A DNA stretch of 64,000 nucleotides from an uncultured Pseudomonadales bacterium (lineage in GTDB: Bacteria; Patescibacteriota; Microgenomatia; UBA1400; UBA12028). The notes under the pieces are model-generated. The model worked only from the letters and a program-made list of their open reading frames with translations. It made no database searches and was not told the DNA's origin. Below, piece by piece: positions 7,710 through 59,749 of this stretch. Location of the stretch: assembly GCA_964635905.1 (NCBI GenBank), contig CAZWPK010000001.1:155863-219862 (forward strand), in the 5' to 3' direction. Position 1 is the stretch's first letter. Every line of letters begins with the position of its first letter. A program made the translations under genes and the position numbers.

Positions 7710-7743
7710 ACTTGTTCTTGACTTATCGCTATTAGGAGAAACT

Positions 7744-11711: not shown

Positions 11712-12369
11712 ATGCATGACGAAAATCTGAGAAAAGAAATTGAGCGAAAACGCTTAGAAGGAATTAGTGCAGAAGAACTTGCCCAGTTGTACTCTGTGCC
11801 ACGAGGAACGGTGTATCAGTGGGTTAGAAACCTAACCTTATCTTCAGATGCGAGGAGCCGCTTGGAAAGTAATAGTATATTGGGGAGTAAGAAAGAGAGA
11901 GAGACCAGCCTAAAAAATAAACAGTTACAAGAACTCAAGATCAGGGAGACTGTTGTATCTGAGCTTGCCACGATCCAGTTACCCATATCAGTGGGGAAAC
12001 TACTGTGTGCATTTTTGTATTGGGCAGAGGGCGCAAAAGACAGAGTACCTTACTTTTATTAACTCTGATCCAAAAATGATTCATACATTTTTATACCTCT
12101 TTAGAAGGTTCTTTAATCCTGATGAAACGAAGTTTAGAGTAATCGTTCATTTACATCCGTATCACAATCCTACAGAAGTACTTTCTTTTTGGGCCACTAC
12201 TACAAAAATACCGTTATCTCAATTCAACAAACCCTACTTAAAGAAGAATTCTGGGATTAATAAAAAAGACGGATACCTAGGCTGCATAAGTGTCCGATAT
12301 TATGATGCCAAAATTGCCAAAGAGATATTCTGGCTATATACTACTTTTTCGAGCACATTAGGGGCGTAG
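11712..12369 (+). pseudogene. HTH-domain protein split by a +1 frameshift (two overlapping ORFs 11712-12062 and 11953-12369); stop codon overlaps tRNA-Trp 5' end
   Basis: N-terminal HTH 'ISAEELAQLYSVPRGTVYQWVRNL'. Frames switch near an A-run at ~12044-12050 ('gcaaaagacagag'). Second ORF continues 220 aa total. No DDE or recombinase motifs seen. Confidence 0.4.
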
Positions 12370-12430
12370 TTTAGTGGCAGAACAGGAGACTCCAAATCTC
12401 TTAGCGAGGGTCCGATTCCTTCCGCCCCTG
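12360..12430 (+). tRNA. tRNA-Trp (anticodon CCA), no encoded CCA end
   Basis: Acceptor AGGGGCG/CGCCCCT, U8. D-stem GTTT/GAAC. Anticodon stem GGAGA/TCTCT, loop CTCCAAA. T-stem GAGGG/CCTTC (one GU), loop TCCGATT. Discriminator G. Folded by eye. Confidence 0.75.
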
Positions 12431-12538
12431 CAAATATATTTAAGCTTGATTAATCAATGTAATTAATTCAATAAGAACGGTCTTTATCTTCCTTCGAACC
12501 TACTATATTTTGCGGAGTCTTTCGTTATAATACTCCAA

Positions 12539-13783
12539 ATGAATTACGAAAGAATGACTATTGATGAGCTAAAGATATTTTTGCAAGAATCTGTGCCATC
12601 TCAAGAATACTTCCAAAATCCGTATTTTTACTTAGAAAGGATGAGGGAAATAAGCGCAATCCTTTGGATGCCTAATCTAAAGTCTTGGCTGGTGACAGAC
12701 TATGCAACAGTAAATCAAGGTTTAAAAGACAAACGATTCTCAGTAAATAGAAAACAAAAATTCTTCGATAATCTCTCAACAAGTGAGTCTTCAGAACTAC
12801 AACCACTTAGGAACTTTTTTGAGCGATGGTTAATGTTTATAGATCCTCCTTATCATGAAAAACTGAAATCACTGCTGACAAAGTCATTTTCACCTGCATC
12901 GATGCGTCATTTTTCTGAACGCATCAGTAGCTCTGCAGAGAAAGTTTTGATTGATACCCCAAATGGTGAAGTTGATTTTCTCGAATCTTTTGCTATTCCC
13001 TATAGCGTGAATGCGCTGGCAGAAATCCTTGGGATCGATGCTGACGACTATATATCTATTGTTCATTGGACTGAGCAGTTATTGAGTTTCTATGGTGGAA
13101 ATTCGGCAGATATTAGTAAGGGTAGGGAAGCACTGCCTGCATATCATGGGCTAGTTCATTACATGAATAGTGTCATCGATTCAAAAAAAGAGAATGCTGG
13201 AGTAGATATTATCTCTGAACTTGTTCATTTTATGGATGAGGGCGTTATATCAAGAGATGAATTATCAGCTATCGTCGCAAACTTACTTGTAGATGGCCAC
13301 GAGCCTGTAGCTCATACGTTATCGAACGGAGTGTATGAATTGCTCCAAAATCCAGAGCAATTAAGAAAATTAAATGACAATCCAAGTTTAATTCCACAAA
13401 CTGCAGAGGAATTCCTGAGAATAAATCCATATTTCCAATATAGCGCTCGGAGAGCTACTGAAGATTTGGAATTAGGGGACGTGAGTATCAAGGAGAATGA
13501 AAGGGTGATGTTTATGTTGGGAGCTGCTAATAGAGATCCAAAGGTATTCGAGTCTCCAAACGAATTACAATTAGACCGTCAAGAAAATAAGCATCTGTCA
13601 TTTGGACAAGGAATTCATTTTTGTTTGGGTGCGGCACTTGGCAGAGCAACGACCAAGATTGCGCTCGAAAAAATTATTTCGACAAAAAATATTAGTACTA
13701 TCCCAAATCAACGATACGACTGGAAACAGTCCGTAGGCTACAGAGGGCTTCAGAGACTGCCATTGCATTGGGAATCAAAGTAA
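12539..13783 (+). CDS. Cytochrome P450
   Basis: Heme-thiolate loop 'FGQGIHFCLGAALGR', ExxR 'EEFLR', I-helix-like 'LLVDGHEPV'. 414 aa. Very low GC. Confidence 0.85.
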   Translation: MNYERMTIDELKIFLQESVPSQEYFQNPYFYLERMREISAILWMPNLKSWLVTDYATVNQGLKDKRFSVNRKQKFFDNLSTSESSELQPLRNFFERWLMFIDPPYHEKLKSLLTKSFSPASMRHFSERISSSAEKVLIDTPNGEVDFLESFAIPYSVNALAEILGIDADDYISIVHWTEQLLSFYGGNSADISKGREALPAYHGLVHYMNSVIDSKKENAGVDIISELVHFMDEGVISRDELSAIVANLLVDGHEPVAHTLSNGVYELLQNPEQLRKLNDNPSLIPQTAEEFLRINPYFQYSARRATEDLELGDVSIKENERVMFMLGAANRDPKVFESPNELQLDRQENKHLSFGQGIHFCLGAALGRATTKIALEKIISTKNISTIPNQRYDWKQSVGYRGLQRLPLHWESK

Positions 13784-14284
13784 ATCTTTTACAGTATATT
13801 CAATAAGAGCATTTTTCTTTTCATATAAAAAAGAAAAGATTTTTGGTGTATTTGACTGTATTGCATCTAGAAGGAAATGGGGAATATTTTCCACAACTTC
13901 TTTGTTTTTCGGATTCAAAGCCCAATCTACCTCTTTCCACTCCAATATACCTTCTTCTGAAGCAATCAAATCTCTTGTCTCGATGATATCTGGAATTTGA
14001 AATACAAAAAGGTGAGTTCCGCCAATGCGGTCTTCATCCTGTATGTACCATTGTACGATCCCTTTATAGTTTTCATTTTTAACTTCTACATGAAGACCTG
14101 ATTCCTCGAAAAGCTCCTTTTTAATATTCTGATCGGGTGTTTCATCTATTTCAATCTTTCCCCCTAAACCATTCCAGAGGAGAGCATTTGGTGGATAGTT
14201 TCGCAGCAACATAAGCACTCTATTTTTGGAAATACAAAAGCCAAGCGTGTATTTGACGTCAAAATTTACTTTGTTTTCAATCAT
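13775..14284 (-). CDS. NUDIX hydrolase
   Basis: Nudix box 'GGKIEIDETPDQNIKKELFEESGL' (Gx5Ex7REUxEExGU pattern). 169 aa. Convergent and overlapping the P450 3' end. Confidence 0.8.
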   Translation of the reverse strand: MIENKVNFDVKYTLGFCISKNRVLMLLRNYPPNALLWNGLGGKIEIDETPDQNIKKELFEESGLHVEVKNENYKGIVQWYIQDEDRIGGTHLFVFQIPDIIETRDLIASEEGILEWKEVDWALNPKNKEVVENIPHFLLDAIQSNTPKIFSFLYEKKNALIEYTVKDLL

Positions 14285-15531
14285 ATAATTTCTATGGTCT
14301 GACTTCTTTCAGGCCCTACAGAAATAATTCTAACAGGTATCTGGAGTTCATCTTCAATAAACTGCACATAATTCTGGCAATTTTTAGGAAGTTCCGAATA
14401 TTTTCTAGCTGAAGAAATATCAGTACTCCATCCTGGTAGGTCTTTATAGATTGGTCTCACGCTCAATAAGTTAAATATCTGGCCTGGTTGATCATTCTCG
14501 TCGTAGGATGTACAGACACGAATATTTTCAAAGCTGGAGAGCACATCTAATTTTGTGAGTGCTATTTCTTTTACCCCATTCATTTTAATTGCGTATTTCA
14601 ACATAGGGAGATCCAGCCATCCGCAGCGTCTTGGTCGTTTTGATATAGTCCCATACTCATGTCCAACCTCTCTCAATTTTGCTCCAGATTCATTTTCTTG
14701 CTCAGTTGGGAATGGGCCACTACCAACTCGTATCGTATAGGCTCTCACTATTCCCAAAACGTCTATCTCCAAAGGAGGAAGACCTACATTTGGAAATACT
14801 GATGATGCAAGTGTATTGTAAGCAACAGTGAAAGGGTATGTGCCAAAGGAATAATCGAGATAGAACGCTTGAGCAGACTCAAAAAGATACTTGCTTGTCT
14901 GAAAATTTTCAATAATGACTTCTGCGACTGGTCTGAAATATTTACTTAGAAGTTTTCCGTAGTGCAAATATTGTTCGACAATTTCTGATACATTTAGCTT
15001 TGTAGACTTTCCATATACATGTTCTAGTCTTCTCTTCTTTAACTCCCATACTTCATTTATTTTTGAAGCTAATATCTCTTTGTCTAAGAGGTCAACAAGT
15101 CGTATTCCATCTCTGTTAGTTTTGTCTTCATATGAGAATCCGACACCTAATTTTAGTGAACCAACTTTTTGTGAACGATATTCCTCTGACGCTTCATCCA
15201 GAGCAACATGATACGGCATGATTACATGGCATCTCGGATCGATAGAGAGTTTGAAGCTCGAGCTAAATGTTTTAACTTTTTCAATTTCTTTTAATAAAGT
15301 AGAGGGACTTATAGAACAGCCTTGAGCTATGAGCACAGGGTGACCAGAAAGTACTGAAGACGGTAAGTGAGAGAGGGGAAGTTTGTTTTCTCCGACAACA
15401 ACGGTATGTCCAGCATTGTTTGCCCCATTGAAACGAACGCCAGCATCAAAACGATTTCCAAGAAAATCTGCAATTTTCCCTTTACCTTCATCCCCAAATT
15501 GCAATCCGAGGAGGATTAATGAATTTGACAT
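14281..15531 (-). CDS. Adenylosuccinate synthetase homolog (PurA-like), divergent IMP-binding motifs
   Basis: 'GDEGKGKIADFL', 'NNAGHTV', 'TKLDVL', 'RVGSGPFPTE', 'GWLD', C-terminal 'SVGPERSQTI' all PurA-like. Canonical 'GTTGRGIGPAYEDK' is replaced by 'KLGVGFSYEDK'. Confidence 0.75.
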   Translation of the reverse strand: MSNSLILLGLQFGDEGKGKIADFLGNRFDAGVRFNGANNAGHTVVVGENKLPLSHLPSSVLSGHPVLIAQGCSISPSTLLKEIEKVKTFSSSFKLSIDPRCHVIMPYHVALDEASEEYRSQKVGSLKLGVGFSYEDKTNRDGIRLVDLLDKEILASKINEVWELKKRRLEHVYGKSTKLNVSEIVEQYLHYGKLLSKYFRPVAEVIIENFQTSKYLFESAQAFYLDYSFGTYPFTVAYNTLASSVFPNVGLPPLEIDVLGIVRAYTIRVGSGPFPTEQENESGAKLREVGHEYGTISKRPRRCGWLDLPMLKYAIKMNGVKEIALTKLDVLSSFENIRVCTSYDENDQPGQIFNLLSVRPIYKDLPGWSTDISSARKYSELPKNCQNYVQFIEDELQIPVRIISVGPERSQTIEII

Positions 15532-15766
15532 AGTAAGTCTACTTAAATGTTCGGATATAGTACAGTAAATTGATTCCAGATCGAATAGGAAGTTTTAGCT
15601 TGAAGAGTATTTTTTGTTAAATAGGTTCTGACGTCCTCCACTAAGCCCTGCAAAATAGAGATAGATTGATATTGCAATCTAAAAACCAACTTTCTCGAAT
15701 ATCGATCCACAAAGACATACAAAACTGGGTTCACAGTGACTTTGGGAAATGATATATTCTTCTTTT

Positions 15767-16113
15767 ATGTCTAATCTTTATAAAACAGTGGACTCTGTAC
15801 GAATAGAGTTTGAAAAGGGAGCATCTCAGCAAAACTATTAGCCTCTTTATACTCGAGTTATCACAAACTTGAAGACATTGATTCATTTATAGATAGCTCG
15901 GTTAAACTCTTCCCATCACTAAATTGTGGTATCGCAAGTGTGTATCTTAAACATCTTCTGGATCAAGGTGTGGTTATAAATGGTAAATATGATAACAATA
16001 ATCATACTTTTCTTGCGCTATGTGATGGAAAGATTGTCTACATAACTGCAGATCAATTTGGTGGACCAAAGATATATATAGGTCCGATGAATTTTGCTTG
16101 GAAGTTAAGGTAG
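15767..16113 (+). pseudogene. Frameshifted copy of the 114-aa protein family represented intact at 26945-27289
   Basis: Translation 'MSNLYKTVDSVRIEFEKG...' then -1 shift '...LFPSLNCGIASVYLKHLL..NHTFLAL.DGKIVYITADQFGGPKIYIGPMN' aligns with 26945-27289 product ('LFPTLNCGIASVYLEYVL..HHTFLFIDGITVVDITADQYAGPVIYIGPLN'). Confidence 0.55.
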
Positions 16114-16150
16114 GTTCGAACATCTTCCACGCACCCCAGTAGAATGTCCA
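16113..16150 (+). repeat. Degenerate copy of tRNA-Trp 3' end (T-arm/acceptor-like), repeat A
   Basis: 'GGTTCGAACATCTTCCACGCACCCCAGTAGAATG' begins at the stop codon of the pseudogene. Aligns to tRNA-Trp 3' half 'GGGTCCGATTCCTTCCGCCCCTGCA' and to repeats B-E. Confidence 0.45.
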
Positions 16151-16163
16151 TTGTCATGAAATA

Positions 16164-16778
16164 TTAATCTACGGTAGGAGATTGATGGTTCAAAAACCGG
16201 TCAATTTTATTTTCATGCAAAACAATAAATTCTTCATTGACAATATTGACCTCAGGATCTCTAAGTTCATCAATTAGTCCTACAGCTTGTAACTTTGTGA
16301 GAATCACCCCACTTCGAGTATGACCGTTCTTCCATTGTTCTTGATAAAAATGAATTGCATTAATCGCAGTTTCTCTATCCAATCTCATTCCTGAGAGTAT
16401 TTTTCTGACGGCTTCCCATTCATGGTAGCTATCATCTTCTTTAAATAAACCTAAATTCGCATCAATACTTTTTCGTACATCGCGCATTTCCATTGGGTTC
16501 AGGGGTATGAGAGTTGCCTCAGATGGACTATCGATCAGGCCAAGTAATTCAAGTTTAAGTAAAACCGTGCCTGCTGCTCCCGAACCATTTTTTCGATCTC
16601 TTACTAAAATGTCGATCATCTTTTGAGCTGAAAGATGATCGCCAATCTCTAGGTTGAAAAGGATCTTGTTGATTTCTTGCCAATCGACTGATTCAACATA
16701 CGCCTCACTCCACTCTCTTTTGTTAGAAAAACCTAATCGTTGCCAATCAGGAAGCTGTTGGTGTTGATCACCGTCCAT
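16164..16778 (-). CDS. Hypothetical protein with internal duplicated segment
   Basis: 204 aa. Two similar segments 'GTVLLKLELLGLIDSP' and 'GVILTKLQAVGLIDEL'. No known motif. Confidence 0.4.
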   Translation of the reverse strand: MDGDQHQQLPDWQRLGFSNKREWSEAYVESVDWQEINKILFNLEIGDHLSAQKMIDILVRDRKNGSGAAGTVLLKLELLGLIDSPSEATLIPLNPMEMRDVRKSIDANLGLFKEDDSYHEWEAVRKILSGMRLDRETAINAIHFYQEQWKNGHTRSGVILTKLQAVGLIDELRDPEVNIVNEEFIVLHENKIDRFLNHQSPTVD

Positions 16779-16949
16779 ATGTGATCAGATTAGCACGAAA
16801 TATTTGTGAGAAATAGGCTCCAACATCCATTTGTTTCCACGATATGCAAATGAAGACGCTCACTCCTATATGGGGTATAAGCGAAAGACGACTGGGGAGC
16901 AGTGTTTACGTTATGCCGAAAATATGCAATTGGCTCTAGAACGGAAATT

Positions 16950-16990
16950 GGTTCGAACATCCTCCACGAGTCCCTGCAAGGACATTTTTC
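16950..16990 (+). repeat. Degenerate copy of tRNA-Trp 3' end, repeat B
   Basis: 'GGTTCGAACATCCTCCACGAGTCCCTGCAAGGACAT' shares 'TCCCTGCAA' with the tRNA-Trp end 'CCCCTGCAAA'. Lies 9 nt after the stop of a 32-aa ORF remnant. Confidence 0.45.
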
Positions 16991-17027
16991 TCGAGTAAAA
17001 ACTTTTGACAGACGCGAGGAATCGAAC

Positions 17028-17771
17028 CTAAAACTCTTTTAGGTAACAGATTTTCTTTTCTCCATAAAATCGAAGATTCTTTGCTTTCCCAGCAAAACGT
17101 ATTTCTACAGCTGCAAAGTGTTCTTCAGAATGAAAGCTAAAAGTAAATCCTTTTGAAAAAGCAAGATGAAGAGTGTCTCTTTCTACTGCAAATGACTGGA
17201 ATGAGAGTAGTTTTTCAGCAAGAGAATCAAGAATAGAGTCAATTTCTTTTTTGGAATTTGATGAGCTTTCTATTAATGCTTTACCTTCTTCGTCTTTCAG
17301 ACTCCACTTCGCATAGGTACAAAATACTGAATCATTTGAAAACCGAGCTTGAAGGATGGTTCCATAAACGCGGAATATTTTTGTGATTGCTTGACCTTCA
17401 AGTGCTTGGAAATCTAGAGAGAGCTGGTTTTTCGTGATAGGAACCTTTTGTGCCAGTTGCTTCAACAAGTGGTATCTATCGAAACTATGACAAGCTTTTG
17501 GATTCAGAATCCCTCTATTTCCAACAGGTGACTTTTCAATCCTATCCAATGCATATGCATGGAGTTCGGTTGGGAATGAATAGAGTTCAAACTCTCCCTT
17601 ATCTGTTTCGATAAAATGGCGCCAAACTTTCCGTCCAATATAGTCAAAATAGGTAACGTAGGTGATCGTACCTACTCCGAAGTGGTCAAGGATACCTTGT
17701 AGCACTGGCAAGCTATAAATACTCTTCATGCAACTAATTATATCTTGGAATGGATAAATGGGCTCGATCAT
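17028..17771 (-). CDS. Hypothetical protein
   Basis: 247-aa ORF, AT-rich. No motif recognised. Confidence 0.4.
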   Translation of the reverse strand: MIEPIYPFQDIISCMKSIYSLPVLQGILDHFGVGTITYVTYFDYIGRKVWRHFIETDKGEFELYSFPTELHAYALDRIEKSPVGNRGILNPKACHSFDRYHLLKQLAQKVPITKNQLSLDFQALEGQAITKIFRVYGTILQARFSNDSVFCTYAKWSLKDEEGKALIESSSNSKKEIDSILDSLAEKLLSFQSFAVERDTLHLAFSKGFTFSFHSEEHFAAVEIRFAGKAKNLRFYGEKKICYLKEF

Positions 17772-17934
17772 CTCACGCCTTTGGCGGGCAAGCCTGCAAT
17801 GTTTTAGTTGTTCCCCAGGTGTTTAGAGAAAACCATCTCTAAGGTGGATTAGAATAAAATCTGCAACGGAATTTGATCACGTCGGTTACGTTCGAATTGT
17901 TTCAAGACAAGACCGTCTGTTGTATTGACAAAAC

Positions 17935-18246
17935 ATGTACAAAACCTATCATTCTTGTATGGCTTTAAAGCTTAGTTTTAATGAGGAAAAGAATCAAATA
18001 TTAAAAGCTACTCGCGGAATCTGTTTTGATGATGTGGTTGAAGCGATCAAGAAAAAGAAGCTTTTAGCTACTATTGCTCATCCAAGCACCAAACATTCAA
18101 ATCAGTGGATCTATATCATTGAGATTGAAGGCTATGCCTACGCAGTTCCGTACGTAAAAAACGCAAAAAAAAATGAAATATTTCTTAAAAGTGTCTATGC
18201 AAGTCGATTCATGACAAAAAAGTATATAAAAAGGAGAAGCAAATGA
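17935..18246 (+). CDS. BrnT-family (DUF497) type II toxin
   Basis: ~100-aa protein, 'FNEEKNQILKATRGICFDDVVEAI...IYIIEIEGYAYAVPYV', consistent with BrnT ribonuclease toxin. ATGA overlap with downstream BrnA-like gene. Confidence 0.6.
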   Translation: MYKTYHSCMALKLSFNEEKNQILKATRGICFDDVVEAIKKKKLLATIAHPSTKHSNQWIYIIEIEGYAYAVPYVKNAKKNEIFLKSVYASRFMTKKYIKRRSK

Positions 18247-18548
18247 AAAGAATCCAAGATCCTTTTATCAATCTGGTATTGGACGAAGAAGAGAAAGCAC
18301 TAGAAGAAACCTTTGAGCGCGGAGATTTTGAGGAAGATGCTCATCTTGAAGATACAAAGAAAATGCTGGAAGAAGCTGCTACACGCTATAGTCAGCTACA
18401 TACCTCAAAACCAGTTACCATTCGTATCAAGCAGCTAGATTTAATAAAAGTGAAATCAAGAGCGAAAGCCAAGAATATTCCCTATCAAACATTGATTGGT
18501 TCAGTTATCCATCAATATGCAGAGGGGAATGAAAAATTAAGTTTATAA
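18243..18548 (+). CDS. BrnA-family antitoxin (C-terminal RHH-like)
   Basis: C-terminal 'VTIRIKQLDLIKVKSRAKAKNIPYQTLIGSVIHQYAEG' matches BrnA hallmark (..ITIRLD.D....K..A...G.GYQT.IN..LREY). Confidence 0.65.
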   Translation: MKRIQDPFINLVLDEEEKALEETFERGDFEEDAHLEDTKKMLEEAATRYSQLHTSKPVTIRIKQLDLIKVKSRAKAKNIPYQTLIGSVIHQYAEGNEKLSL

Positions 18549-18550
18549 TA

Positions 18551-18593
18551 GGTTCAAACATTCTCCACGTGTCTTCTCCCAAGAAGTGCACAT
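18551..18593 (+). repeat. Degenerate copy of tRNA-Trp 3' end, repeat C
   Basis: 'GGTTCAAACATTCTCCACGTGTCTTCTCCCAAGAAGTGCACAT' directly after the BrnA stop codon. Confidence 0.45.
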
Positions 18594-18692
18594 CGACAAT
18601 ACGACTCTCCTCAACTAAAACTGCTATCAGAGCAATTGAGAGTATGCATAATAGTAGTTGCAATACTAATCCGCATAATGTATACTCAGTTC

Positions 18693-19868: not shown

Positions 19869-19870
19869 AG

Positions 19871-19910
19871 GGGTTGAATATCTTCTATTAACCCCTGCAA
19901 ACATAGGTTG
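19871..19910 (+). repeat. Degenerate copy of tRNA-Trp 3' end, repeat D (best match)
   Basis: 'GGGGTTGAATATCTTCTATTAACCCCTGCAAACAT' vs tRNA-Trp 'GAGGGTCCGATTCCTTCCGCCCCTGCAAATAT'. Begins 3 nt after the AAA ATPase stop. Confidence 0.5.
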
Positions 19911-20002
19911 AATCAAAATAATCGATTTTTCTATCAGTCATGCAACTCGCGCACCTTGCTCAAATTTCTTCTGATACTTGATCTGTATAGTATGCTTTAA
20001 CC

Positions 20003-20785
20003 ATGAGTAAAGATAAAATTCTTTCTCCACTTTTTTCAGAAAAGAATGTTAAAAAGAAAACACGTTTCAACTTTTTAGGCATTGGTATCGGCAGAGATAG
20101 GGATAAAAACGGCATTGATAACCAGCTAGACTCCGCGCGTTTTAGAGAATTGATGGGGGAATGGTATAAAGAGGAAAAAACGATACAAAGAGATCGTGAT
20201 GCGGGAAGAAAAGTCTCAAGGGAAGATGTTCAAAGAATTGACCGTCTCCGACTAAGAATTATCACTGAATGTATTCAGATTTTGGAGAAATGTAACAGTC
20301 CTAGATCCTACAGGAATTTATTAGAGACAGCAGCGTGCCTTTATTATGAGGCTGCAAGATTCCGTAGTTATGAGCTTATCGAAATTGCTCAGAAATACGA
20401 GCAAATAGCGGTACACCAACTTAAATTGCAAAAACCAACAGAAAATGTGAGCAATTTATTTAAAGGCTTGCCGAGAGCAAGGGACTTAAATCATGAGCTT
20501 AGTGCGATTGTAACTGGTGACGCTCGCTTTGACGAGGCTAAAATTAAAAGGATCTCAGGAGAGCTTATTGCACTTTACTATGCCTATGATGAGAACAAGT
20601 TAGCTCCCTATGACATGGGGAGAATTAAGTTTGACTATAGTACGGAACATATCGAGTTTAACGTCTTAAGTCTAGGAGGATGGATTATTGCTCAGCTAGT
20701 ATTAGAAGCACATAGTTTAGGTATCACGGATTTTTCCTCTTATATTCTCTTAAGGAACAGGATAGAGGACTTTCCGAAACGGTGA
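20003..20785 (+). CDS. Hypothetical protein
   Basis: 260-aa ORF. No motif recognised. Confidence 0.4.
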   Translation: MSKDKILSPLFSEKNVKKKTRFNFLGIGIGRDRDKNGIDNQLDSARFRELMGEWYKEEKTIQRDRDAGRKVSREDVQRIDRLRLRIITECIQILEKCNSPRSYRNLLETAACLYYEAARFRSYELIEIAQKYEQIAVHQLKLQKPTENVSNLFKGLPRARDLNHELSAIVTGDARFDEAKIKRISGELIALYYAYDENKLAPYDMGRIKFDYSTEHIEFNVLSLGGWIIAQLVLEAHSLGITDFSSYILLRNRIEDFPKR

Positions 20786-20867
20786 AACCTAAGAAATCGA
20801 AAGATTTTCTCTCAAGCAGAGAACCAATCAACAATCTCACTGAGTAAGGAACGTTCTAGTGAAATAA

Positions 20868-21545
20868 CCTGACCATCTAGTGCGGATACAGTCTCCAGTT
20901 ACTATTGCAGATTAAGAAGCAGAGAAGAGTATTCGCTCAATTATTTCCACTGCATTCCCAGACCATCGAATTCTAGGAGAGGAAGAGGGGACTAACACCT
21001 CGGATTTTTCGTATTTATGGATCATTGATCCAATTGATGCAACAAAGAACTATTTACGACACATCCCACTTTTTGCTACCCAGCTTGCGCTGATGAAGGA
21101 TGGAGAAGTGATTCTTGGAGTATCGAACTCTCCTGAAATTGGCGAACTGCTGTATGCGGAGAAAGGACAGGGAACCTATTGCAATGACACAAAAATCTCG
21201 GTCTCACAGAAGTCATCGATTCAAGAAGCATATCTAAGCTATCGTAGTGTCGGATATTTTCAGAGAAGCGGTCGCATGGAACAGTTTTTGAAGCTAGAAA
21301 ACGACACGCAGGCTCATCGTGGCTTTGGAGATTTTTGGGGATACCATCTATTGGCCCAAGGGAAAGTAGACATTATGCTGGAAGGGAATACGAAGCTGTG
21401 GGACGTTGCGGCAGTATCCATTCTTGTCAGCGAGGCAGGGGGAACGGTCACAGATTTTGAAGGGAACCCCATCAACGAATCCACAACATCCATTATTGCC
21501 ACAAATGGACACCTTCATACTGCAGTGGCAGGATACTTTTTCTAA
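20868..21545 (+). pseudogene. Inositol monophosphatase (SuhB/IMPase) family pseudogene: 5'-truncated with in-frame TAA
   Basis: In-frame translation '..PVTIAD*EAEKSIRSIISTAFPDHRILGEEEG...WIIDPIDATKNYL' matches IMPase motifs (DLVTEAD.AAE..I...YP.H.ILGEE; WIIDPIDGT.NF). TAA at 20913-20915. First ~40 codons absent. The intact-looking part is ORF 21093-21545. Confidence 0.6.
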
Positions 21546-21571
21546 TCTTGAACTAACTGGACAATATTTCC

Positions 21572-22570
21572 TTGCACCAATCATCGGTGGCTCGGCATGC
21601 AAAATTCCTCTGGTATACTCAAACAATGACAATTATTTCCTTTTTAAATCCAGTTAATCTTGCACAAGAAAAAGAAAAATTCTTCAATTCTGACTCGTAT
21701 CATCCGCAGCTTTGCTATGACTGGAATGAACAAGAGATCGCAGCCTGGATAAACCGGGAACCTGAATATGCTTCCTTTTCAAAAGCCATACTTTCACAAG
21801 ATAGCGACGCCATTGAAAAGGAGGGTAGACATGCGTTCTCAACTGTAATGGATCCTCAGTTGCTTAACCTAGCTACCACTGTTACTTCGAAGCCTCCACA
21901 ACTCTTTTCTACTCCGGATATAAGTAAAGTTGTATCCTCTTTTGAAGATGCCTTTTCCTTTTTTGGACTAGACTACACGATTGAAGTGAGCGAAGCACAT
22001 GGCTTTAACTTTAGACCTGTCCATGAGGAAAAGAAAATTGTTGTGAGTACACATCTAAACATGCAGTTTTTTTCCCTTGATGGAGAGATTAAGCACGAGT
22101 TGTTGCATGTGATTCGAAATGTAAACACACAATCTTCCTCTATTCCATTTTCAGCAAACTACTTACCAACCGAAGAAGGATTGGCAACCTACTTTCAAGA
22201 TTATGTGGGCTTACATGGCGAATCCTCGTTATTCCAACATGCGGCTGAATATGTCATGACGAACACTGCCTTACATGGGTCGTTACGCGATATCACTGCC
22301 TTTTTGCAAACCATTGGGTTTAGCAAAGAACTGGCATGGCAACGCGCTATTCGTCACAAATTCGGTTTCATTGATACGGCCCAACCCGGTGACAATCTGA
22401 AACCAAGTATGTATTTCTATTGGCAACAAAAAATAAAAGCCATCTCTGATGCCGAAAAGCTACGATTACTATCAGGAAAGATTAGGCTTGATGAGCTAAC
22501 AAACTATCCGACTTATTCAGGAATCATTCCCAAAGAGAAATGCATACAATTTTATGCGTTGTCCATCTAA
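21572..22570 (+). CDS. HExxH metallopeptidase-like protein resembling DUF1704 / QEGLA-motif family
   Basis: 'IKHELLHVIRN' (HExxH) followed by 'PTEEGLATYFQ' (QEGLA-like). 332 aa. Confidence 0.4.
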   Translation: MHQSSVARHAKFLWYTQTMTIISFLNPVNLAQEKEKFFNSDSYHPQLCYDWNEQEIAAWINREPEYASFSKAILSQDSDAIEKEGRHAFSTVMDPQLLNLATTVTSKPPQLFSTPDISKVVSSFEDAFSFFGLDYTIEVSEAHGFNFRPVHEEKKIVVSTHLNMQFFSLDGEIKHELLHVIRNVNTQSSSIPFSANYLPTEEGLATYFQDYVGLHGESSLFQHAAEYVMTNTALHGSLRDITAFLQTIGFSKELAWQRAIRHKFGFIDTAQPGDNLKPSMYFYWQQKIKAISDAEKLRLLSGKIRLDELTNYPTYSGIIPKEKCIQFYALSI

Positions 22571-22684
22571 AAAGGCATTCCGATCGCTTTGTTAGTTGCT
22601 AGCGGGGGGAAAAGAGAGCTTCTAGTGGGTCTAATGGACAACAGGCACTTGAAAAGCACATAGAAAGCACTATAATAGTCCCAT

Positions 22685-22939
22685 ATGGATACAACTGGAA
22701 CTCAAGTAAAAGTGACACTCCCTGATCCTCTCTACGAGTATGCAAGTAGTAAGGCAGGGAAGTTTGGGATTACCCTTTCCTCGTATATTAAAAACCTCAT
22801 TCTTAATGATGTTAAAGATATGGACTTTCCTGTCTATCAAGCATCCAAAAAGACTGAAGCGTCGTATCAGAAAGCAGTCCAAGAGAAAAACGAAGCTACT
22901 GAAGTTAAAAATATTAATGCTTTTTTTGACACGTTATGA
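22685..22939 (+). CDS. RHH-type antitoxin (ParD/RelB-like)
   Basis: 'VKVTLPDPLYEYASSKAGKFGITLSSYIKNLI' ribbon-helix-helix pattern. 84 aa. ATGA overlap with downstream toxin gene. Confidence 0.5.
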   Translation: MDTTGTQVKVTLPDPLYEYASSKAGKFGITLSSYIKNLILNDVKDMDFPVYQASKKTEASYQKAVQEKNEATEVKNINAFFDTL

Positions 22940-23202
22940 AAAGAATAACGTTTAGTCCAACGTTTCAAAAAAAACTGAAGATCCTTCACAGAAAAGATAA
23001 AAATCTTATTGAGAAGATTAGAAAACAGCTTCTTTTGTTTCAAGAGAACCCTAAGCATCCCTCATTACGTCTTCACAAATTGAAAGGCGACTTACAAAAT
23101 ACCTGGAGTTTATCTATAACAATGAGTTTCCGACTGCTTTATACTGAAGACACCGAATACTATTTTTTTGACATGGGCGAGCATGATGAGATTTATCGAT
23201 AA
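22936..23202 (+). CDS. RelE/ParE-family type II toxin
   Basis: 88 aa, '...NPKHPSLRLHKLKGDLQNTWSLSITMSFRLLY' typical RelE/ParE core. Operon partner of upstream RHH protein. Confidence 0.6.
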   Translation: MKRITFSPTFQKKLKILHRKDKNLIEKIRKQLLLFQENPKHPSLRLHKLKGDLQNTWSLSITMSFRLLYTEDTEYYFFDMGEHDEIYR

Positions 23203-23225
23203 GATAAATTTGCTACAATGCAGTT

Positions 23226-23876
23226 ATGATTAAAGCTGTTGTGTTCGATCTCGATGATACGTTGTTACAGACACGGGAGACAAAGTTTGCCGCCATCAAA
23301 TATGCGGGTGAGCACTTCTATGGTCAATCCATCTCCGATGAAACCATCAACAGCCACTGGGGAAAACCATTTCGCGAGTTCACCGCGTTAGTCTTTGGAG
23401 ATGTCGATTCCGTGGACGGCATTATTAGTAACTACAAATCCATTGTTCAGCAATTCAAAAACCGTGAGCATCCAGGTACCGGAGAAACACTTGAACTACT
23501 CTTCCCACACTACAACGTGTGTATCTTAAGCTCAGCCGCACAAAGCTTAGTAATGTACGATTTGGAGACTGCCGGGCTGCCCATCCAGAAGTTTACTTTT
23601 ATCCAGGCAGCCGAGGATACTAAGGTTCATAAACCTGATCCTAAAGTTTTTATTCCTACCTTAAAAGTTCTCCACGATCTTGAAATTGAACCAAACAATG
23701 TTCTCTATGTAGGTGACATTGTGTCTGACTATGTAGCAGCTAACGGGGCAGGAGTGCACTTTAGAGGAATTGCAGATCGGACCATTTCTCAGGCAGAATT
23801 TGAAAAAGCAGGTGCAACCACAATCTTAAGTATTCGTGAGTTACCTACGCTACTTTCTAACTGGACAGCGTCATAA
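23226..23876 (+). CDS. HAD-superfamily hydrolase (phosphatase)
   Basis: Motif I 'VVFDLDDTLL', motif IV 'YVGDIVSDYVAA'. Confidence 0.7.
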   Translation: MIKAVVFDLDDTLLQTRETKFAAIKYAGEHFYGQSISDETINSHWGKPFREFTALVFGDVDSVDGIISNYKSIVQQFKNREHPGTGETLELLFPHYNVCILSSAAQSLVMYDLETAGLPIQKFTFIQAAEDTKVHKPDPKVFIPTLKVLHDLEIEPNNVLYVGDIVSDYVAANGAGVHFRGIADRTISQAEFEKAGATTILSIRELPTLLSNWTAS

Positions 23877-23892
23877 GAAAAAACTTTCCCAT

Positions 23893-24369
23893 ATGTTTAA
23901 TCATGTGACTTCACAGTATCAGTGTCCAATCTGTCTTGGGATCCGAGGCGGCAATGACAACAATACCCTTATTCGTCAGAGTGACATTGTGTATACCGAT
24001 GACCAAGTCATGGTATTCGTCGCTTCCTACTTTATTGAAAGTAACCTAGGACACTTGATTGTAGTTCCTAAACAGCATGTTGAGCACCTCTATGATCTCT
24101 CGGATGAGGTGGGAGCCAGAATTATCTCAGTAGCCCGACACATGGCAATTGCGATGAAACAGGCTTATGAATGTGAAGGGGTAATGCTACTTCAGAATAA
24201 CGAACCTGCTAGCGGACAACATGCATTCCATTTTCATCTCCACCTCTTTCCACGCTATTCCACTGATCAATTTTTTTCTCATGTAGAGAACAAACGTGAA
24301 ACTTCAGCAGAGGAACGATTGCCGTATGCTGAAAAGATTCGAGGGGCGTTATGTGGGCAATCTACCTGA
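23893..24369 (+). CDS. HIT (histidine triad) family protein with N-terminal CxxC
   Basis: Histidine triad 'HFHLHLFPR'. N-terminal 'CPICLG'. Start moved to ATG 23893. Confidence 0.65.
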   Translation: MFNHVTSQYQCPICLGIRGGNDNNTLIRQSDIVYTDDQVMVFVASYFIESNLGHLIVVPKQHVEHLYDLSDEVGARIISVARHMAIAMKQAYECEGVMLLQNNEPASGQHAFHFHLHLFPRYSTDQFFSHVENKRETSAEERLPYAEKIRGALCGQST

Positions 24370-24579
24370 GACGCACAATTGCAATTTAGTATCCACCTAG
24401 GAGGATACATTGTTAGGAAATACTCGTTTCTCAACACGACGTCCATCCTGGGCGAACAACATTCTGCCTTCAGCAAACTAGCAAACTGTACCATTCCATA
24501 ATAAATGTATCTAGACCCATAATTAGAAAGATTGAGTTGTTTGTGTTAAAATGCTCCTCTTATCTGTAGAAAGATTTCT

Positions 24580-24861
24580 ATGACAAAAGAACAACTTACT
24601 GACTTAATCTCCAGTGCAAGAACATATTATGGCTCTCTTGATATGGCCTCAATTCATCCTTTAGTAGTAGAACTATCTGAAGCATTCAGTATTGCTCCAA
24701 CTATTGCGCAAAAGTTAATCGTTGGATTTCCCGCACAAGTTATAGTAGATGGTATTGGACAAGTAACTGTCCCAGACTTAGTGGAAGATGATGACGCCGC
24801 AATACTTGTTCGAGAAGGTAAGATCACAGAATTGGTAAACCGGATCTGTGAACGAAGGTAA
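24580..24861 (+). CDS. Hypothetical protein
   Basis: 93-aa ORF. No motif recognised. Confidence 0.3.
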   Translation: MTKEQLTDLISSARTYYGSLDMASIHPLVVELSEAFSIAPTIAQKLIVGFPAQVIVDGIGQVTVPDLVEDDDAAILVREGKITELVNRICERR

Positions 24862-24934
24862 CGTACGCAGTTCAAACGTCCTCTGTATGAAATAGTTAAA
24901 GTAGTGTACATATGTAGAGGGATCATCACTCACT

Positions 24935-25867
24935 ATGTCACACACTTTCTTTACACGCCCTCCCGACCAGATTGAGAAACGAACCATTGGGAGAGGGAAA
25001 ACCACCACGATTACCATTTACTCCTTTTTAAAGTCAACGCATGCCTATGCAGAGTCGTTTGGTTTTCAATGGAAACGCTATGCGAAAGTTCAAATTGATC
25101 GTTTCAACGGCACCAAGATTACCAAAAGCCATTTAGAGCAGTTGTTAGGATTCCCGTTATCGAAGCTTAAAAACCAGACAGTGTTGGAAATAGGCTCTGG
25201 AGCCGGCCGCTATACCGATCTTTTTCGTACCCTTGCTCACCATGTCATCACCGTGGACCCCAGCGCTATCGACAGTAATGTCGGAATTGGATCAAGCTCG
25301 GTTACTGCTGTGCGTGCAGACCTCTTTGATCTGCCGATACAACCGGAGAAAATCGACCTGGTGTTCTGTCGAGGAGTCCTGCAGCATACCCAAGATCCCA
25401 TCGCGGCGATTGAGCAACTGTGTAGGTATGCAAAGGTCGGAGGACTGGTAGCCTTTGACGTCTATCCCCGTAACTGGCAATCACTCTTCTATACCAAGTA
25501 TTATCTCCGTGCCATCACCAAACGATTACCCAAAAAACAGTTTGCTAAGTTTCTGGAGCGCAATATCCCGTGGATGCTACGACTAAAAGTAAAATTTCTG
25601 AATCCGCTCTTTCCCGACATCCGTTTCATTCGTGAGATCCCCAACATCGTGTTTCCCATTGCAGACTACACTCGATATAAGCCACTGGCTAGTCTATCGT
25701 TTGAACAGCAGGTCCAATGGTCAATCTTAGATACCTTTGACATGTATACCCCGGAATTTGACACTCCACTCTCGTTTGAAGAAGTCCTTGCAAACCTACC
25801 CAAAAACATGGAAGTTGTTCGAGCGGATCGGGATCAATATCATTTTGTTTTCAAACGGGTGAAATAA
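24935..25867 (+). CDS. Class I SAM-dependent methyltransferase
   Basis: Motif I 'VLEIGSGAGRYTDLF', acidic loop 'VITVDP', motif 'FCRGVLQH'. Confidence 0.7.
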   Translation: MSHTFFTRPPDQIEKRTIGRGKTTTITIYSFLKSTHAYAESFGFQWKRYAKVQIDRFNGTKITKSHLEQLLGFPLSKLKNQTVLEIGSGAGRYTDLFRTLAHHVITVDPSAIDSNVGIGSSSVTAVRADLFDLPIQPEKIDLVFCRGVLQHTQDPIAAIEQLCRYAKVGGLVAFDVYPRNWQSLFYTKYYLRAITKRLPKKQFAKFLERNIPWMLRLKVKFLNPLFPDIRFIREIPNIVFPIADYTRYKPLASLSFEQQVQWSILDTFDMYTPEFDTPLSFEEVLANLPKNMEVVRADRDQYHFVFKRVK

Positions 25868-25922
25868 CACTGTTACCAAGCACACATTTCTTCTTTGAAC
25901 TCCTTTTGGTATTATCCTGATA

Positions 25923-26261
25923 ATGATCATCACAACATCAACGCCATTTACTCTCGAAGAAATTGAACAGTTAAAAGAGCAATTTGAAGTCTATGTGAAA
26001 ACAGTTATCGACATAGAACTGAAACAGTGTAGTGCAGGAATGAATCGTCACTTTCAAGGAGAACAGATTCTGTTATCAACGGGATCCAAACAGAGTAATC
26101 TATGGGGAGGCGGAATTGATTTGGAGACGCTAGAAATTGATTTTAACTCCTTCATTAATATCCGTCCACGAGACAAGAATACGAAAAATGAAATACAAAG
26201 TGAAGAAATTAAAGCACAGTACGAAAAACTGACAAAATATTTTTTCCAGGAAATAGTATGA
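25923..26261 (+). CDS. Hypothetical protein
   Basis: 112-aa ORF. Confidence 0.3.
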   Translation: MIITTSTPFTLEEIEQLKEQFEVYVKTVIDIELKQCSAGMNRHFQGEQILLSTGSKQSNLWGGGIDLETLEIDFNSFINIRPRDKNTKNEIQSEEIKAQYEKLTKYFFQEIV

Positions 26262-26533
26262 ATTCCACACAGATGTTACTCGGCTCATTATCAAATGATC
26301 TTTTTCGAGTTGCTAGTTGCGCTCAACGAGGATCAACGCAAGCTGCATCGAGGTTTTTGACTGAAGCCAAGCGATGGGCAATTTCATTGCAATCACAAAC
26401 CGTGGCTGCGTATATCAAAACTATTGCAAACGATATTGCGCAAAGAGAGGTGAGTGATATCTCAATTGAATCTGCTGAACGGTACCTAATGTACGGAATT
26501 TTGTTGCAAAACTATACGCTTCATCACACCTAG
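26258..26533 (+). CDS. Hypothetical protein
   Basis: 91-aa ORF, ATGA overlap with upstream ORF. Its TAG stop overlaps repeat E. Confidence 0.3.
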   Translation: MNSTQMLLGSLSNDLFRVASCAQRGSTQAASRFLTEAKRWAISLQSQTVAAYIKTIANDIAQREVSDISIESAERYLMYGILLQNYTLHHT

Positions 26534-26565
26534 GTTCAAACGTGTCCCATGAATCCTAATACGCC
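26533..26565 (+). repeat. Degenerate copy of tRNA-Trp 3' end, repeat E
   Basis: 'GGTTCAAACGTGTCCCATGAATCCTAATACGCC' shares the GGTTCRAAC head with repeats A-C. Confidence 0.4.
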
Positions 26566-26883
26566 ATGTCATCCTCACAAAAAACCATAGACTACCTAAT
26601 AGACCAGATGTCGCAAGCAGGGCAAATTCGTACTCGCAAACTGTTTAGTGAGTACGCAATCTATTGCGATTCGAAAGTGGTCGCTTTTGTCTGCGACGAT
26701 GAACTGTTTGTTAAACCTACAGATGCGGGTCGACAGTCTATTGGCTCCGTCGTTGAAAAGCCCGCCTATCCTGGAAGTAAACTATACTTTTGGATCTCTG
26801 GCGATCAATGGGAAGATCCTGACTGGTTATCCCAATTAATTCAACGAACAGCCACAGTCCTACCACTTCCTACCAAGAAATAG
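26566..26883 (+). CDS. TfoX/Sxy N-terminal domain-like protein
   Basis: 'RKLFSEYAIYCDSKVVAFVCDDELFVK' resembles TfoX_N (RKMFGGYGLY.DGKMFALI.DD.LYLK). Confidence 0.45.
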   Translation: MSSSQKTIDYLIDQMSQAGQIRTRKLFSEYAIYCDSKVVAFVCDDELFVKPTDAGRQSIGSVVEKPAYPGSKLYFWISGDQWEDPDWLSQLIQRTATVLPLPTKK

Positions 26884-26944
26884 AAAGTGGAATAGTCAAC
26901 AACTCAAATTAGATACAAAAAACAGCAACGGGGTCATTTTTTGT

Positions 26945-27289
26945 ATGAGAGATTTTTTGGAAGTAATACAACACGCTCGATTTGAGTTTCAAAACCGTAG
27001 AGTCTCAAAGAGTCTTCTTTCCATGTTGTATCAAAAGTACCAGCACATAGAAAATATCGAATTATTTATTGAGAGAGCTTCTGTTTTATTCCCAACTCTT
27101 AATTGTGGAATTGCAAGCGTGTATCTTGAGTATGTACTAGGAACTGGAAGGGTAGTCCAAGGGAAATTCAACACACATCATCACACGTTTCTGTTTATCG
27201 ATGGGATAACCGTCGTAGACATAACTGCTGATCAGTACGCAGGACCAGTAATCTATATTGGCCCACTGAATGTTCCCAGGACAATTTGA
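26945..27289 (+). CDS. Hypothetical protein (intact member of family with pseudogene copy at 15767-16113)
   Basis: 114 aa. 'LFPTLNCGIASVYL...ITADQYAGPVIYIGP' conserved with the pseudogene copy. Confidence 0.45.
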   Translation: MRDFLEVIQHARFEFQNRRVSKSLLSMLYQKYQHIENIELFIERASVLFPTLNCGIASVYLEYVLGTGRVVQGKFNTHHHTFLFIDGITVVDITADQYAGPVIYIGPLNVPRTI

Positions 27290-27298
27290 GCTAGTGTC

Positions 27299-27328
27299 TC
27301 TCCTTCTTTACAGAAGGAGAACATTTTT
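27299..27328 (+). terminator. Candidate intrinsic terminator
   Basis: 8-bp stem TCTCCTTC/GAAGGAGA (27299-27306 / 27313-27320), loop TTTACA, then ACATTTTT. 10 nt after the stop at 27289. Confidence 0.35.
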
Positions 27329-27483
27329 AACTTCAATGAGAATAGCGGTACACTCTCTCTACTTGCAACAAATGGAATATTGCATGACGCCGGATCAAAT
27401 TGTTTCAGCACCTCAACTACAACACCTAAATATTCCTACATTGACATCCTTCTGCACGACCTGTTTTACTTAACCATAGTAGT

Positions 27484-27966
27484 TTGAATAACCCTTTTAG
27501 GAGCGGTATGACACTTTCTCGATTTGCAGCATCCATGAGTATGGCTGCCGTTGTTCTTCTCACGATCTCTGTTTCCCCTTCTTTTGCTGCTCCGCGTACA
27601 GGGACACTGTACACTTCGAAAGAAAAGGGCATGGGTGTGCAAGTGATCCCGTATGTGACAGCCGATAAACATAGTGTTTTTCTGGATTTTTCAGCGACCA
27701 ATCTTTCCTCAGTTGAGTACATTAAATACAACCTAAACTACGACACCTCCAAAGGACTTCGAGGAGCGGAAGGGATGAAGTGGCCACTAAAAGCAGAGTA
27801 CAAGCTCTTTAAAGGTGTTCCCTATGTTCGTCAACATATTTTATTAGGAACCTGTTCAAAGAACATCTGTAGTTATGATTCTAACGTCAAAAACTTCCGT
27901 TTGACCGTAACGACCAAATATAAAGGTAAAGCTGCCGAACAAACCAGAGTTGTATCGTTTAACTAA
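27484..27966 (+). CDS. Secreted hypothetical protein (signal peptide)
   Basis: N-terminal 'MSMAAVVLLTISVSPSFAAP' signal-like. Confidence 0.4.
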   Translation: MNNPFRSGMTLSRFAASMSMAAVVLLTISVSPSFAAPRTGTLYTSKEKGMGVQVIPYVTADKHSVFLDFSATNLSSVEYIKYNLNYDTSKGLRGAEGMKWPLKAEYKLFKGVPYVRQHILLGTCSKNICSYDSNVKNFRLTVTTKYKGKAAEQTRVVSFN

Positions 27967-27976
27967 CCTTTGACTG

Positions 27977-29088: not shown

Positions 29089-29158
29089 AAGCATTGCCAT
29101 TGTGTGGTGCTGTAATTGGTCTCCTGTAAGGAAGTGCGTTCTTGTACAATACAAAAAC

Positions 29159-59745: not shown

Positions 59746-59749
59746 AACT

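Follow-up and report, generated by a model that had tools for sequence, protein, structure and literature searches.

A putative integron-like cassette array at the 3' end of tRNA-Trp in Microgenomates

Bacteria of the candidate phyla radiation (CPR) have genomes of ~1 Mb with few recognised mobile elements, and little is understood of how accessory genes are acquired and rearranged in them. Here we examine a low-GC region that begins at the tRNA-Trp gene of an uncultured member of the Microgenomates, within a 64,000-nt stretch of DNA (GenBank assembly GCA_964635905.1, contig CAZWPK010000001.1, positions 155,863 to 219,862; hereafter the window). Several described systems invite comparison. Modules that depend on the Xer recombinases include the integrative mobile elements exploiting Xer (IMEX), found at dif, and the pdif modules of Acinetobacter plasmids; dif and pdif are 28-bp dyads (11-6-11), and in pdif modules the sites alternate in orientation. 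The tycheposons of Prochlorococcus combine an inward-facing site-specific integrase, hallmark replication genes and cargo, and are flanked by true partial copies of a tRNA (10.1101/2020.12.28.424599). Integron cassettes end in attC sites, imperfect palindromes that fold into an R''-L''/L'-R' hairpin whose structure is conserved over its sequence, and clusters of attC sites lacking an integron-integrase are known as CALIN (PMC4889954). Very small genomes have been reported as a class without complete integrons (PMC4889954), and the hosts of the arrays described here belong to that class.

We read the low-GC region as a tRNA-Trp-anchored, integron-like cassette array of a kind widespread in Microgenomates, served by a recombinase encoded elsewhere and decaying in this genome, and give this reading a probability of about 0.6. 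A conserved 34-nt site divides the region into an array, homologues of its units occur in differing orders in other genomes, and the end of the site matches the end of the tRNA gene. The site came to light in a repeat search of the window as a 19-nt family at 16113, 16950 and 18551, three matches where 0.03 were expected by chance. The family was extended by fuzzy matching and then with a profile hidden Markov model to an element of ~34 nt with the consensus aaTAGGTTCnAACATCCTyCACkAGTCCCTGCAAa. Every copy in the window has the orientation of the tRNA gene, and none lies elsewhere in the 64 kb. The tRNA gene and the sites are as follows.

12360-12431, plus strand: tRNA-Trp (CCA), found with ARAGORN and scoring 61.5 bits with Rfam
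15619-15657, plus strand: clear site, 35 bits
16108-16145, plus strand: clear site, 24 bits
16811-16828, plus strand: eroded or partial site, 11 bits
16945-16985, plus strand: clear site, 42 bits
18547-18573, plus strand: clear site, 23 bits
19866-19903, plus strand: eroded or partial site
24870-24883, plus strand: eroded or partial site, 7.3 bits
26531-26556, plus strand: eroded or partial site, 1.7 bits

Compared with other arrays, the copies in the window are divergent and only the one at 16945 is near consensus. The degenerate copy at 19866-19903 reads TAGGGGTTGAATATCTTCTATTAACCCCTGCAAACA and begins at the stop codon of the gene for an AAA_14/DUF4143 ATPase. With these sites as boundaries, the region and its open reading frames (ORFs) were divided as listed here.

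12432-15657, plus strand: cassette 1 (3.2 kb), with P450 at 12539-13783 (plus), NUDIX at 13775-14284 (minus), PurA at 14281-15531 (minus) and the terminal site 15619-15657
15658-16145, plus strand: cassette 2, with a 57-aa C-terminal fragment (15940-16113) of the family of the gene at 26945-27289, and the site 16108-16145
16146-16985, plus strand: cassette 3, with a 204-aa gene at 16164-16778 (minus), the partial site 16811-16828 and the full site 16945-16985
16986-18582, plus strand: cassette 4, with an unknown 247-aa gene at 17028-17771 (minus), BrnT-like 17935-18246, CopG-like 18243-18548 and the site 18547-18573
18583-19903, plus strand: cassette 5, with the AAA_14/DUF4143 ATPase at 18636-19868 and the degenerate site 19866-19903
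19904-26556, plus strand: eroded part of the array, with only site remnants
20003-20785 and 21572-22570: unknown genes in the eroded part
~20870-21545: inositol-monophosphatase pseudogene with an in-frame TAG and a degraded N-terminus
22685-23202: toxin-antitoxin pair of a YafQ/ParE-type toxin (22936-23202) and a small unrecognised partner
23226-23876: HAD
23836-24369: HIT
24580-24861: ORF, followed by the site remnant 24870-24883
24935-25867: methyltransferase
25923-26261: DUF5674
26258-26533: 91-aa gene, with the degenerate site 26531-26556
26557-28550, plus strand: distal variable genes without recognisable sites, namely TfoX_N at 26566-26883, a 114-aa gene at 26945-27289 and small unknown ORFs to 28607

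The accessory genes named in an initial annotation of this DNA were recovered with Pfam and NCBIfam, which also gave the domains of cassette 1. Its PurA, which had been described as divergent, passes the NCBIfam equivalog cut-offs for adenylosuccinate synthase and is therefore not highly diverged. The two toxin-antitoxin pairs that had been named are present, although the BrnT-like/CopG-like pair falls below Pfam cut-offs and the partner of the YafQ/ParE-type toxin is unrecognised. No Pfam or NCBIfam family matched the 204-aa gene of cassette 3. Cassette 1 adjoins tRNA-Trp and is probably the newest of the array. The array as a whole looks inactive or ageing, since it has one near-consensus site, is eroded past 18.6 kb, and contains pseudogenes and an unusual share of inverted genes; this agrees with the decay that had been proposed.

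Counterparts of these units were found on contigs and loci from other genomes and metagenomes, which carry L numbers. The P450-NUDIX-PurA trio with the same terminal site is present on contig L119 at 81% amino acid identity, and the trio recurs in L120-L123. The toxin-antitoxin part of cassette 4 (17935-18548) is 67% identical in nucleotides to a complete 708-nt cassette in L105, and homologues of the AAA_14/DUF4143 ATPase lie 3' of tRNA-Trp in L027, L029 and L035. Fifteen of the 22 homologues of the toxin at 22936-23202 have a site directly 3' of them, the DUF5674 pair is found in L002 as a complete cassette of 674 nt, and a TfoX_N homologue is a 359-nt cassette adjoining tRNA-Trp in L019. 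The cassette 2 fragment and the gene at 26945-27289 are linked by a direct repeat, D1 (71% over 63 nt), and both match a single L006 gene by tblastn.

Some observations on the content of these cassettes are worth recording. The P450-NUDIX-PurA module occurs in at least five other contigs, with P450 identities of 81%, 61% and 48%, and its most distant versions carry an additional second NUDIX gene and a carbamoyltransferase. The P450 of cassette 1 is nearest to a cyclodipeptide-synthase-associated subfamily, below its cut-off. The trio suggests a small pathway of nucleotide or nucleoside modification rather than housekeeping purine synthesis. TfoX_N is carried as a cassette in the window (26566-26883), L019, L020 and L046; the core genome encodes DprA (61873-62733). 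Both are competence-related and could bear on how cassettes enter the cell.

The spread of the site was examined in 49 species-level genome loci, gathered by aligning the proteins of a 455-aa gene that lies to the left of tRNA-Trp, and by a pattern scan of metagenome contigs. Twenty-seven of the 49 loci contain the site (at most 10 copies per locus), and the scan added 69 contigs (at most 8 copies each), for a total of 205 copies in 88 sequences, 157 of them unique with their context. In the genome loci, nearly every copy is 3' of tRNA-Trp and points the same way. Four hits depart from this: two score ~9 bits, and two in L005 belong to a palindromic variant element that lies just 3' of the sites at 5212 and 8131. 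Among arrays whose start can be seen, the co-oriented gene before the array is tRNA-Trp in 37 sequences, with the array beginning directly after it, tRNA-Ser in six and tRNA-Ala in one.

The units between sites are short and alike in build. The 106 unique ones have a median length of 760 nt (interquartile range 626-1157, range 222-3799) and carry one to three accessory genes. ORFs of at least 50 aa run mostly in the direction of the site and the tRNA (164 co-oriented, 19 opposite), the leader from the preceding site to the first ORF has a median length of 68 nt, and 36 cassettes have a last ORF that terminates at the TAG with which the site starts. They encode toxin-antitoxin pairs, Fic, GIY-YIG, GNAT, HIT, histidine phosphatase, HD, AAA_33/zeta-like kinase, YCII, DUF1905, methyltransferases and many unknowns. 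Their GC content is 0.347±0.037 irrespective of that of the host, and 20 of 21 genomes have an array with lower GC than the flank upstream of the tRNA, the mean difference being 0.061 (Wilcoxon p=2e-6). The low GC first noticed is therefore a general feature of the cassette pool.

A second variant of the site, GGTTCTAACATCGTCCACTACTCCCCGC, was seen in L058, L060, L065, L072, L094, L097, L052/L077/L103, L062 and L074; it is identical at 28 of 28 positions in 10 contigs, and one base differs in L065 and L097. Usually only one copy is present, 0.35-0.8 kb 3' of tRNA-Ser or of a tRNA-Trp gene with a CCCCGC end. On its 5' side are ~66 conserved nt that form a mini-ORF of 21-22 codons ((M/L)I(L/F)AKFSDKLGIKKRVVVVSK), the stop of which is the TAG of the site, and no RNA consensus structure was found for this variant. 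On the reverse strand of L097, an identical 38-nt block follows both tRNA-Ser (8929-9016) and the site at 8319 and holds a textbook sigma-70 promoter, TTGACA-N17-TATAAT; some cassettes thus seem to begin with a shared promoter. Five cassettes of L049 share a hairpin-containing leader instead. The same contig has, at 4301-7765 within an array of 10 sites, a 100% identical tandem duplication of a two-cassette unit (616 + 1116 nt), which is either the product of unequal exchange between sites or an assembly artefact. Contigs L001 (2970 nt), L119 (3260 nt) and many of L050-L118 have a start or an end that falls a few dozen bases or less from a site or tRNA-Trp. Arrays seem to break short-read assemblies and are hence probably under-represented in metagenome-assembled genomes, and the site accounts for the breaks in these assemblies just past tRNA-Trp.

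Homologous cassettes were found at different array positions and among unrelated neighbours, with the homology extending over the whole unit. The fifth cassettes of L026 and L085 are 85.6% identical in nucleotides end to end, and L085 has two additional cassettes between homologous cassettes as compared with L026. The second cassette of L017 is 79% identical to the fourth of L026 and 88% identical to one in L099. When junctions were aligned, the upstream homology ended at the site and the downstream homology began right after ...GCAAA, which places the switch within the site. Site variants that travel with their cassettes were not discernible in the aligned sites, which are too uniform.

The site resembles the 3' part of tRNA-Trp in having a T-loop GGTTCGA and a terminal CCCTGCAAA. 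It has ~5 extra bases and shares only ~7-9 contiguous bases with the tRNA, and it was rejected as a true tRNA 3' half when T-arm and acceptor pairing failed on a manual check. Its 3' end follows that of the local tRNA. Sites ending in ...CCCTGC accompany a tRNA-Trp ending in ...CCCTGC, both tRNA-Trp and site end in ...CCCCGC in L066, L095 and L103, tRNA-Ser genes ending in ...CCGC are found with ...CCGC sites, and both end in ...CCGT in L097. Over 40 distinct tRNA/site pairs, 7.3 of the last 9 nt of the site agreed with the tRNA end, while shuffled pairings gave 6.44±0.13 of 9; none of 2000 shuffles, which ignore the kinship among the genomes, reached the observed 7.3. Bases 3' of the tRNA, 6 to 38 nt of them, are repeated after the site in L075, L066, L060 and L097; in some loci other than the window, the duplicated stretch of tRNA end and flank is 11-42 nt. 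Because the tRNA genes are intact, the exchange would have to fall within the final few bases of the gene or immediately past its end, in the core that tRNA and site share.

The composition of the window sets the region apart. GC content is 0.467±0.030 in 1-kb windows outside it (n=47) and 0.392 over 12-27 kb (Mann-Whitney p=4e-8), in keeping with the ~15 kb of low and patchy GC first reported. The first half (12-20 kb) is at 0.372, and the second (20-27 kb) is patchier at 0.414 (p=1e-4). The correlation of tetranucleotide usage with the flanks decreases from 0.82-0.90 to 0.64-0.72 over 12.5-27.5 kb, and the GC content at third codon positions is ~0.30 for the genes of 12.5-20.8 kb, compared to 0.42-0.52 for flank genes. 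The initial annotation had the drop in GC occur at tRNA-Trp. The statistics uphold the drop, but GC begins to fall ~700 nt 5' of the tRNA, at ~11.65 kb, over a frameshifted HTH/LAGLIDADG-like gene. On the other side, GC stays at 0.39-0.43 and recovers only at ~27.7 kb. Milder dips occur at 37.5-38.5 kb and 59-61.6 kb. The latter (59000-61600, GC 0.38-0.43) contains small unknown ORFs and a thioredoxin-like gene (60493-61026), and neither cassette sites nor a tRNA were found in it.

The genes around the region, outside the array, allow it to be compared between relatives.

7514-7589, plus strand: tRNA-Thr, a tRNA gene upstream of tRNA-Trp
10261-11628, minus strand: 455-aa GT-B glycosyltransferase-like gene, the left anchor of the locus
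11712-12369, plus strand: frameshifted HTH and LAGLIDADG-like gene, in two overlapping frames that join at ~12040
28555-30775, plus strand: conserved right flank by domain search, with an ArsR-type regulator, an MFS transporter (29102-30394) and a pterin-4a-carbinolamine dehydratase

The order tRNA-Thr/Tyr/Thr, 455-aa gene, tRNA-Trp is kept in nearly all 49 loci, and the DNA 3' of tRNA-Trp differs in content in every related genome examined. In most relatives this locus holds none of the genes of 12.5-20.8 kb. The MFS gene, whose homologues in relatives are ~60% identical in amino acids to that of the window, is 0.8 kb away from tRNA-Trp in L007, 1.1 kb in L045, 6.6 kb in L020 and 16.7 kb in the window, and in L006 the ArsR homologue is directly 3' of tRNA-Trp. 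The region 3' of tRNA-Trp is an insertion hotspot. The variability among relatives that had been expected is thus real (L007, for instance, has the tRNA, one unrelated ORF and then the MFS homologue), as is the placement of foreign-looking accessory DNA exactly at the 3' end of tRNA-Trp. The proposed native neighbour, secE-nusG, adjoins tRNA-Trp in no relative.

Two genes next to the array were considered as the possible enzyme. The 455-aa gene has 927 homologues, mostly named Woesebacteria, Pacebacteria or Patescibacteria, which assigns the window to Microgenomates, and a weak PDB match to a processive diacylglycerol glucosyltransferase; it resembles a GT-B glycosyltransferase and was rejected as a recombinase. 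The N-terminal part of the frameshifted gene matches HTH_23, and its stop overlaps the 5' end of tRNA-Trp. An intact 217-aa homologue is at the equivalent place in L006, and L001, L005, L009, L020 and L046 have homologues as well; the gene is not part of the insert, since it stands between the same neighbours in several relatives. It is present at only a minority of loci and does not track the arrays, and was set aside as the enzyme. Proteins of this ~217-aa HTH and LAGLIDADG-like ('YWAEGAK') family adjoin tRNA-Trp or tRNA-Thr in several relatives, with copies at 9267-9920 and 12493-13095 in L006 and at 12906-13511 in L004, and the intact form had no Pfam or PDB match. Directly after tRNA-Thr, at 7681-7935, the window encodes ribosomal protein L33, with 85-90% identity to the protein of relatives; next come two tandem Exo_endo_phos paralogues, not secE-nusG. 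An ordinary glmS ribozyme (39351-39557, 45 bits; gathering score 37) lies upstream of a glmS-like gene at 39666-41408.

The site itself is conserved as primary sequence over ~34 nt. Its 48-nt core folds no better than shuffled sequences (mean z +0.39; z -0.29 with 155 nt of context), the inverted arm TCGAACCTA is downstream of only 14 of the 157 copies, and RNAalifold predicted no pairs for the longer variant, which together ruled out an attC-like hairpin. No Rfam family matches it, which removes a known RNA as a candidate, and scans of the IMG/VR viral contigs gave no convincing match. Inspection of the consensus and of per-column conservation over the 157 copies found no dif-like dyad.

A recombinase was sought in the window and beyond. 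Pfam found no integrase domain among the ORFs of 4.5-32.5 kb, and no transposase or excisionase among those of the region, in agreement with what was first reported; no integrase appeared among the top 25 families of the other 33 window ORFs. Regex scans for the tyrosine-recombinase motif HxLRH[ST] or a serine-recombinase motif, which covered roughly 1.2 Mb, found none in the window or in 118 loci. We also clustered 817 large ORFs from all loci and checked the families that recur near arrays, which comprised one IS30-like transposase besides Fic, FtsX and unknowns. When 125 cluster representatives from array-bearing loci were searched with Pfam, only two rve hits resulted, one of them an IS30-like transposase. 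At the distal ends of arrays, nearly all genes are singletons. If such an enzyme exists, it would act in trans.

The array could then have grown as follows. Circular or transformed cassettes with a single site would recombine with the 3' end of the tRNA gene, or with a resident site, at the shared core CCCTGCAAA. The last bases of tRNA-Trp, CCCTGC, and the AAA that follows are the proposed primary attachment site. Each insertion would keep the tRNA intact and displace older cassettes outward. The recombinase would be encoded elsewhere in the genome, and cassettes may be expressed either from short leaders of their own or through transcription that continues from the tRNA promoter. A broader and more tentative proposal, to which we give somewhat less than even odds, is that Microgenomates have a previously undescribed cassette-capture platform that does the job of an integron with other parts: a tRNA end, a linear 34-bp site, a recombinase encoded elsewhere and a shared low-GC pool. 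The insertion site of such a platform would be the 3' end of tRNA-Trp, or of tRNA-Ser or tRNA-Ala in some lineages. A hairpin-free 34-bp site, its end co-evolving with the acceptor end of the tRNA, would take the place of attC, and a recombinase encoded elsewhere that of IntI. The pool of low-GC accessory cassettes would circulate among genomes of ~1 Mb.

Of the described systems, the sedentary chromosomal integron or CALIN is the closest functional analogue. Chromosomal integrons and CALIN likewise consist of arrays of small, mostly co-oriented and mostly promoterless cassettes of similar size, each ended by a recombination site that starts at or near a stop codon. Their cargo also includes toxin-antitoxin pairs, GNAT, methyltransferases and unknowns, their site variants are also lineage-specific and homogeneous within an array, and CALIN have no adjacent integrase either. 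The arrays described here do contain at least two short co-oriented cassettes with a 3' site, but the hairpin attC is missing, and so is the adjacent IntI, a tyrosine recombinase with an extra domain that a complete integron requires. Here ~34 bp of sequence are conserved without an R''-L''/L'-R' hairpin, whereas attC conserves structure; intI and attI are absent, and a tRNA gene would provide the primary site with its 3' end.

Tycheposons and Islander-type islands share with the arrays the anchoring at tRNA 3' ends, the outward displacement of older material, tRNA-like repeats between units, the persistence of degraded remnants and streamlined hosts. However, tycheposon modules are kilobase-scale, whereas the cassettes here are sub-kilobase and without integrase or replication genes: no integrase, primase, helicase or polymerase domains were found in the region or in the cassettes of other arrays, so that neither the integrase and replication genes of a tycheposon nor the integrase gene inside an Islander-type island is present. 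The repeats of tycheposons are true partial tRNAs, while the site has ~7-9 contiguous bases and the T-loop-like GGTTCGA. Xer-dependent modules resemble the arrays in their small cargo, toxin-antitoxin pairs included, their short conserved sites and a recombinase encoded elsewhere. They differ in that the site here has no dyad, with all copies facing one direction and tied to a tRNA end; on inspection, the two 11-bp inverted arms around a 6-bp spacer that define dif were not found.

Another possible explanation, though an unlikely one, is that the 34-nt element is an expression or RNA module (a 3' end, processing signal or stop), and that its repeats, as portable stretches of homology, let RecA mediate exchange once DNA has entered by natural transformation, no dedicated site-specific recombinase being involved. 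This would account for the lack of a recombinase linked to any array and for the stop codon with which the element opens and which 36 cassettes use. The window encodes DprA and has a TfoX_N cassette, the exact tandem duplication in L049 is what unequal homologous exchange would give, and 34 nt is near the minimum length for RecA-dependent exchange. However, each sequence carries the element at a single locus and in a single orientation, its 3' terminus varies together with the acceptor end of the tRNA that anchors the array, and arrays begin exactly at the tRNA 3' end, none of which a pure expression element needs. It also has no predicted structure and no Rfam match, and its sequence is conserved across hosts that differ in tRNA-Trp and in GC content.

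The initial annotation had suggested a single old island, and its interpretation is only partly supported by the data. A classical phage-derived or integrative and conjugative element-derived island at the tRNA-Trp 3' end, which lost its own integrase and then decayed, would likewise abut the tRNA, be low in GC, carry accessory genes, toxin-antitoxin pairs and pseudogenes, and have no integrase. We consider it improbable, since small cassettes divided by a conserved 34-nt site were found instead. The 3' 23-mer of the window tRNA-Trp has no second copy in the window with at most three mismatches, although a distal repeat is expected of an integrase-borne island, and the multiple internal sites differ from the tRNA by indels. 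Phage, conjugation and replication genes are absent from the region, its pieces are separate sub-kilobase cassettes in other genomes, and the site is absent from the IMG/VR viral contigs. That the region is native, its low GC reflecting variable, weakly expressed genes typical of the lineage and its repeats chance or assembly artefacts, could draw on the milder GC dips at 37.5-38.5 kb and 59-61.6 kb, but it is hardly credible given that the genes of 12.5-20.8 kb are missing from the locus in most relatives, that content differs per genome, that the repeats occur in 88 independent contigs from many studies where 0.03 were expected by chance in the window, and that tetranucleotide usage shifts too.

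Several points weigh against the cassette array reading. Neither the window nor the neighbourhood of any array yielded a tyrosine or serine recombinase, and the catalytic step is purely inferred. A site with neither dyad symmetry nor a hairpin is unusual among known recombinase substrates. No circular cassette or empty-site polymorphism was seen, and near-identical arrays from different samples (L085/L102 and L078/L104) show no gain or loss. In the window, the site calls beyond 18.6 kb are weak (1.7-7.3 bits). The relatives are metagenome-assembled and distant, with anchor genes at most 70% identical in amino acids except in one 3-kb contig, and the timing of insertion cannot be judged from them.

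We found no account in the literature of CPR bacteria with cassette arrays or integron-like elements at their tRNA genes; coverage was incomplete and an earlier description is possible, but such arrays seem undescribed. The 34-nt site is a simple probe with which cassette pools, including toxin-antitoxin pairs, Fic, GNAT, P450-NUDIX-PurA and unknowns, could be harvested from metagenomes. If the array reading is true, integron-like arrays can arise without IntI or a folded attC, and an unrecognised pair of recombinase and site would exist. A lineage-wide cassette platform would then be one of the main channels for gene flow across a large share of bacterial diversity.

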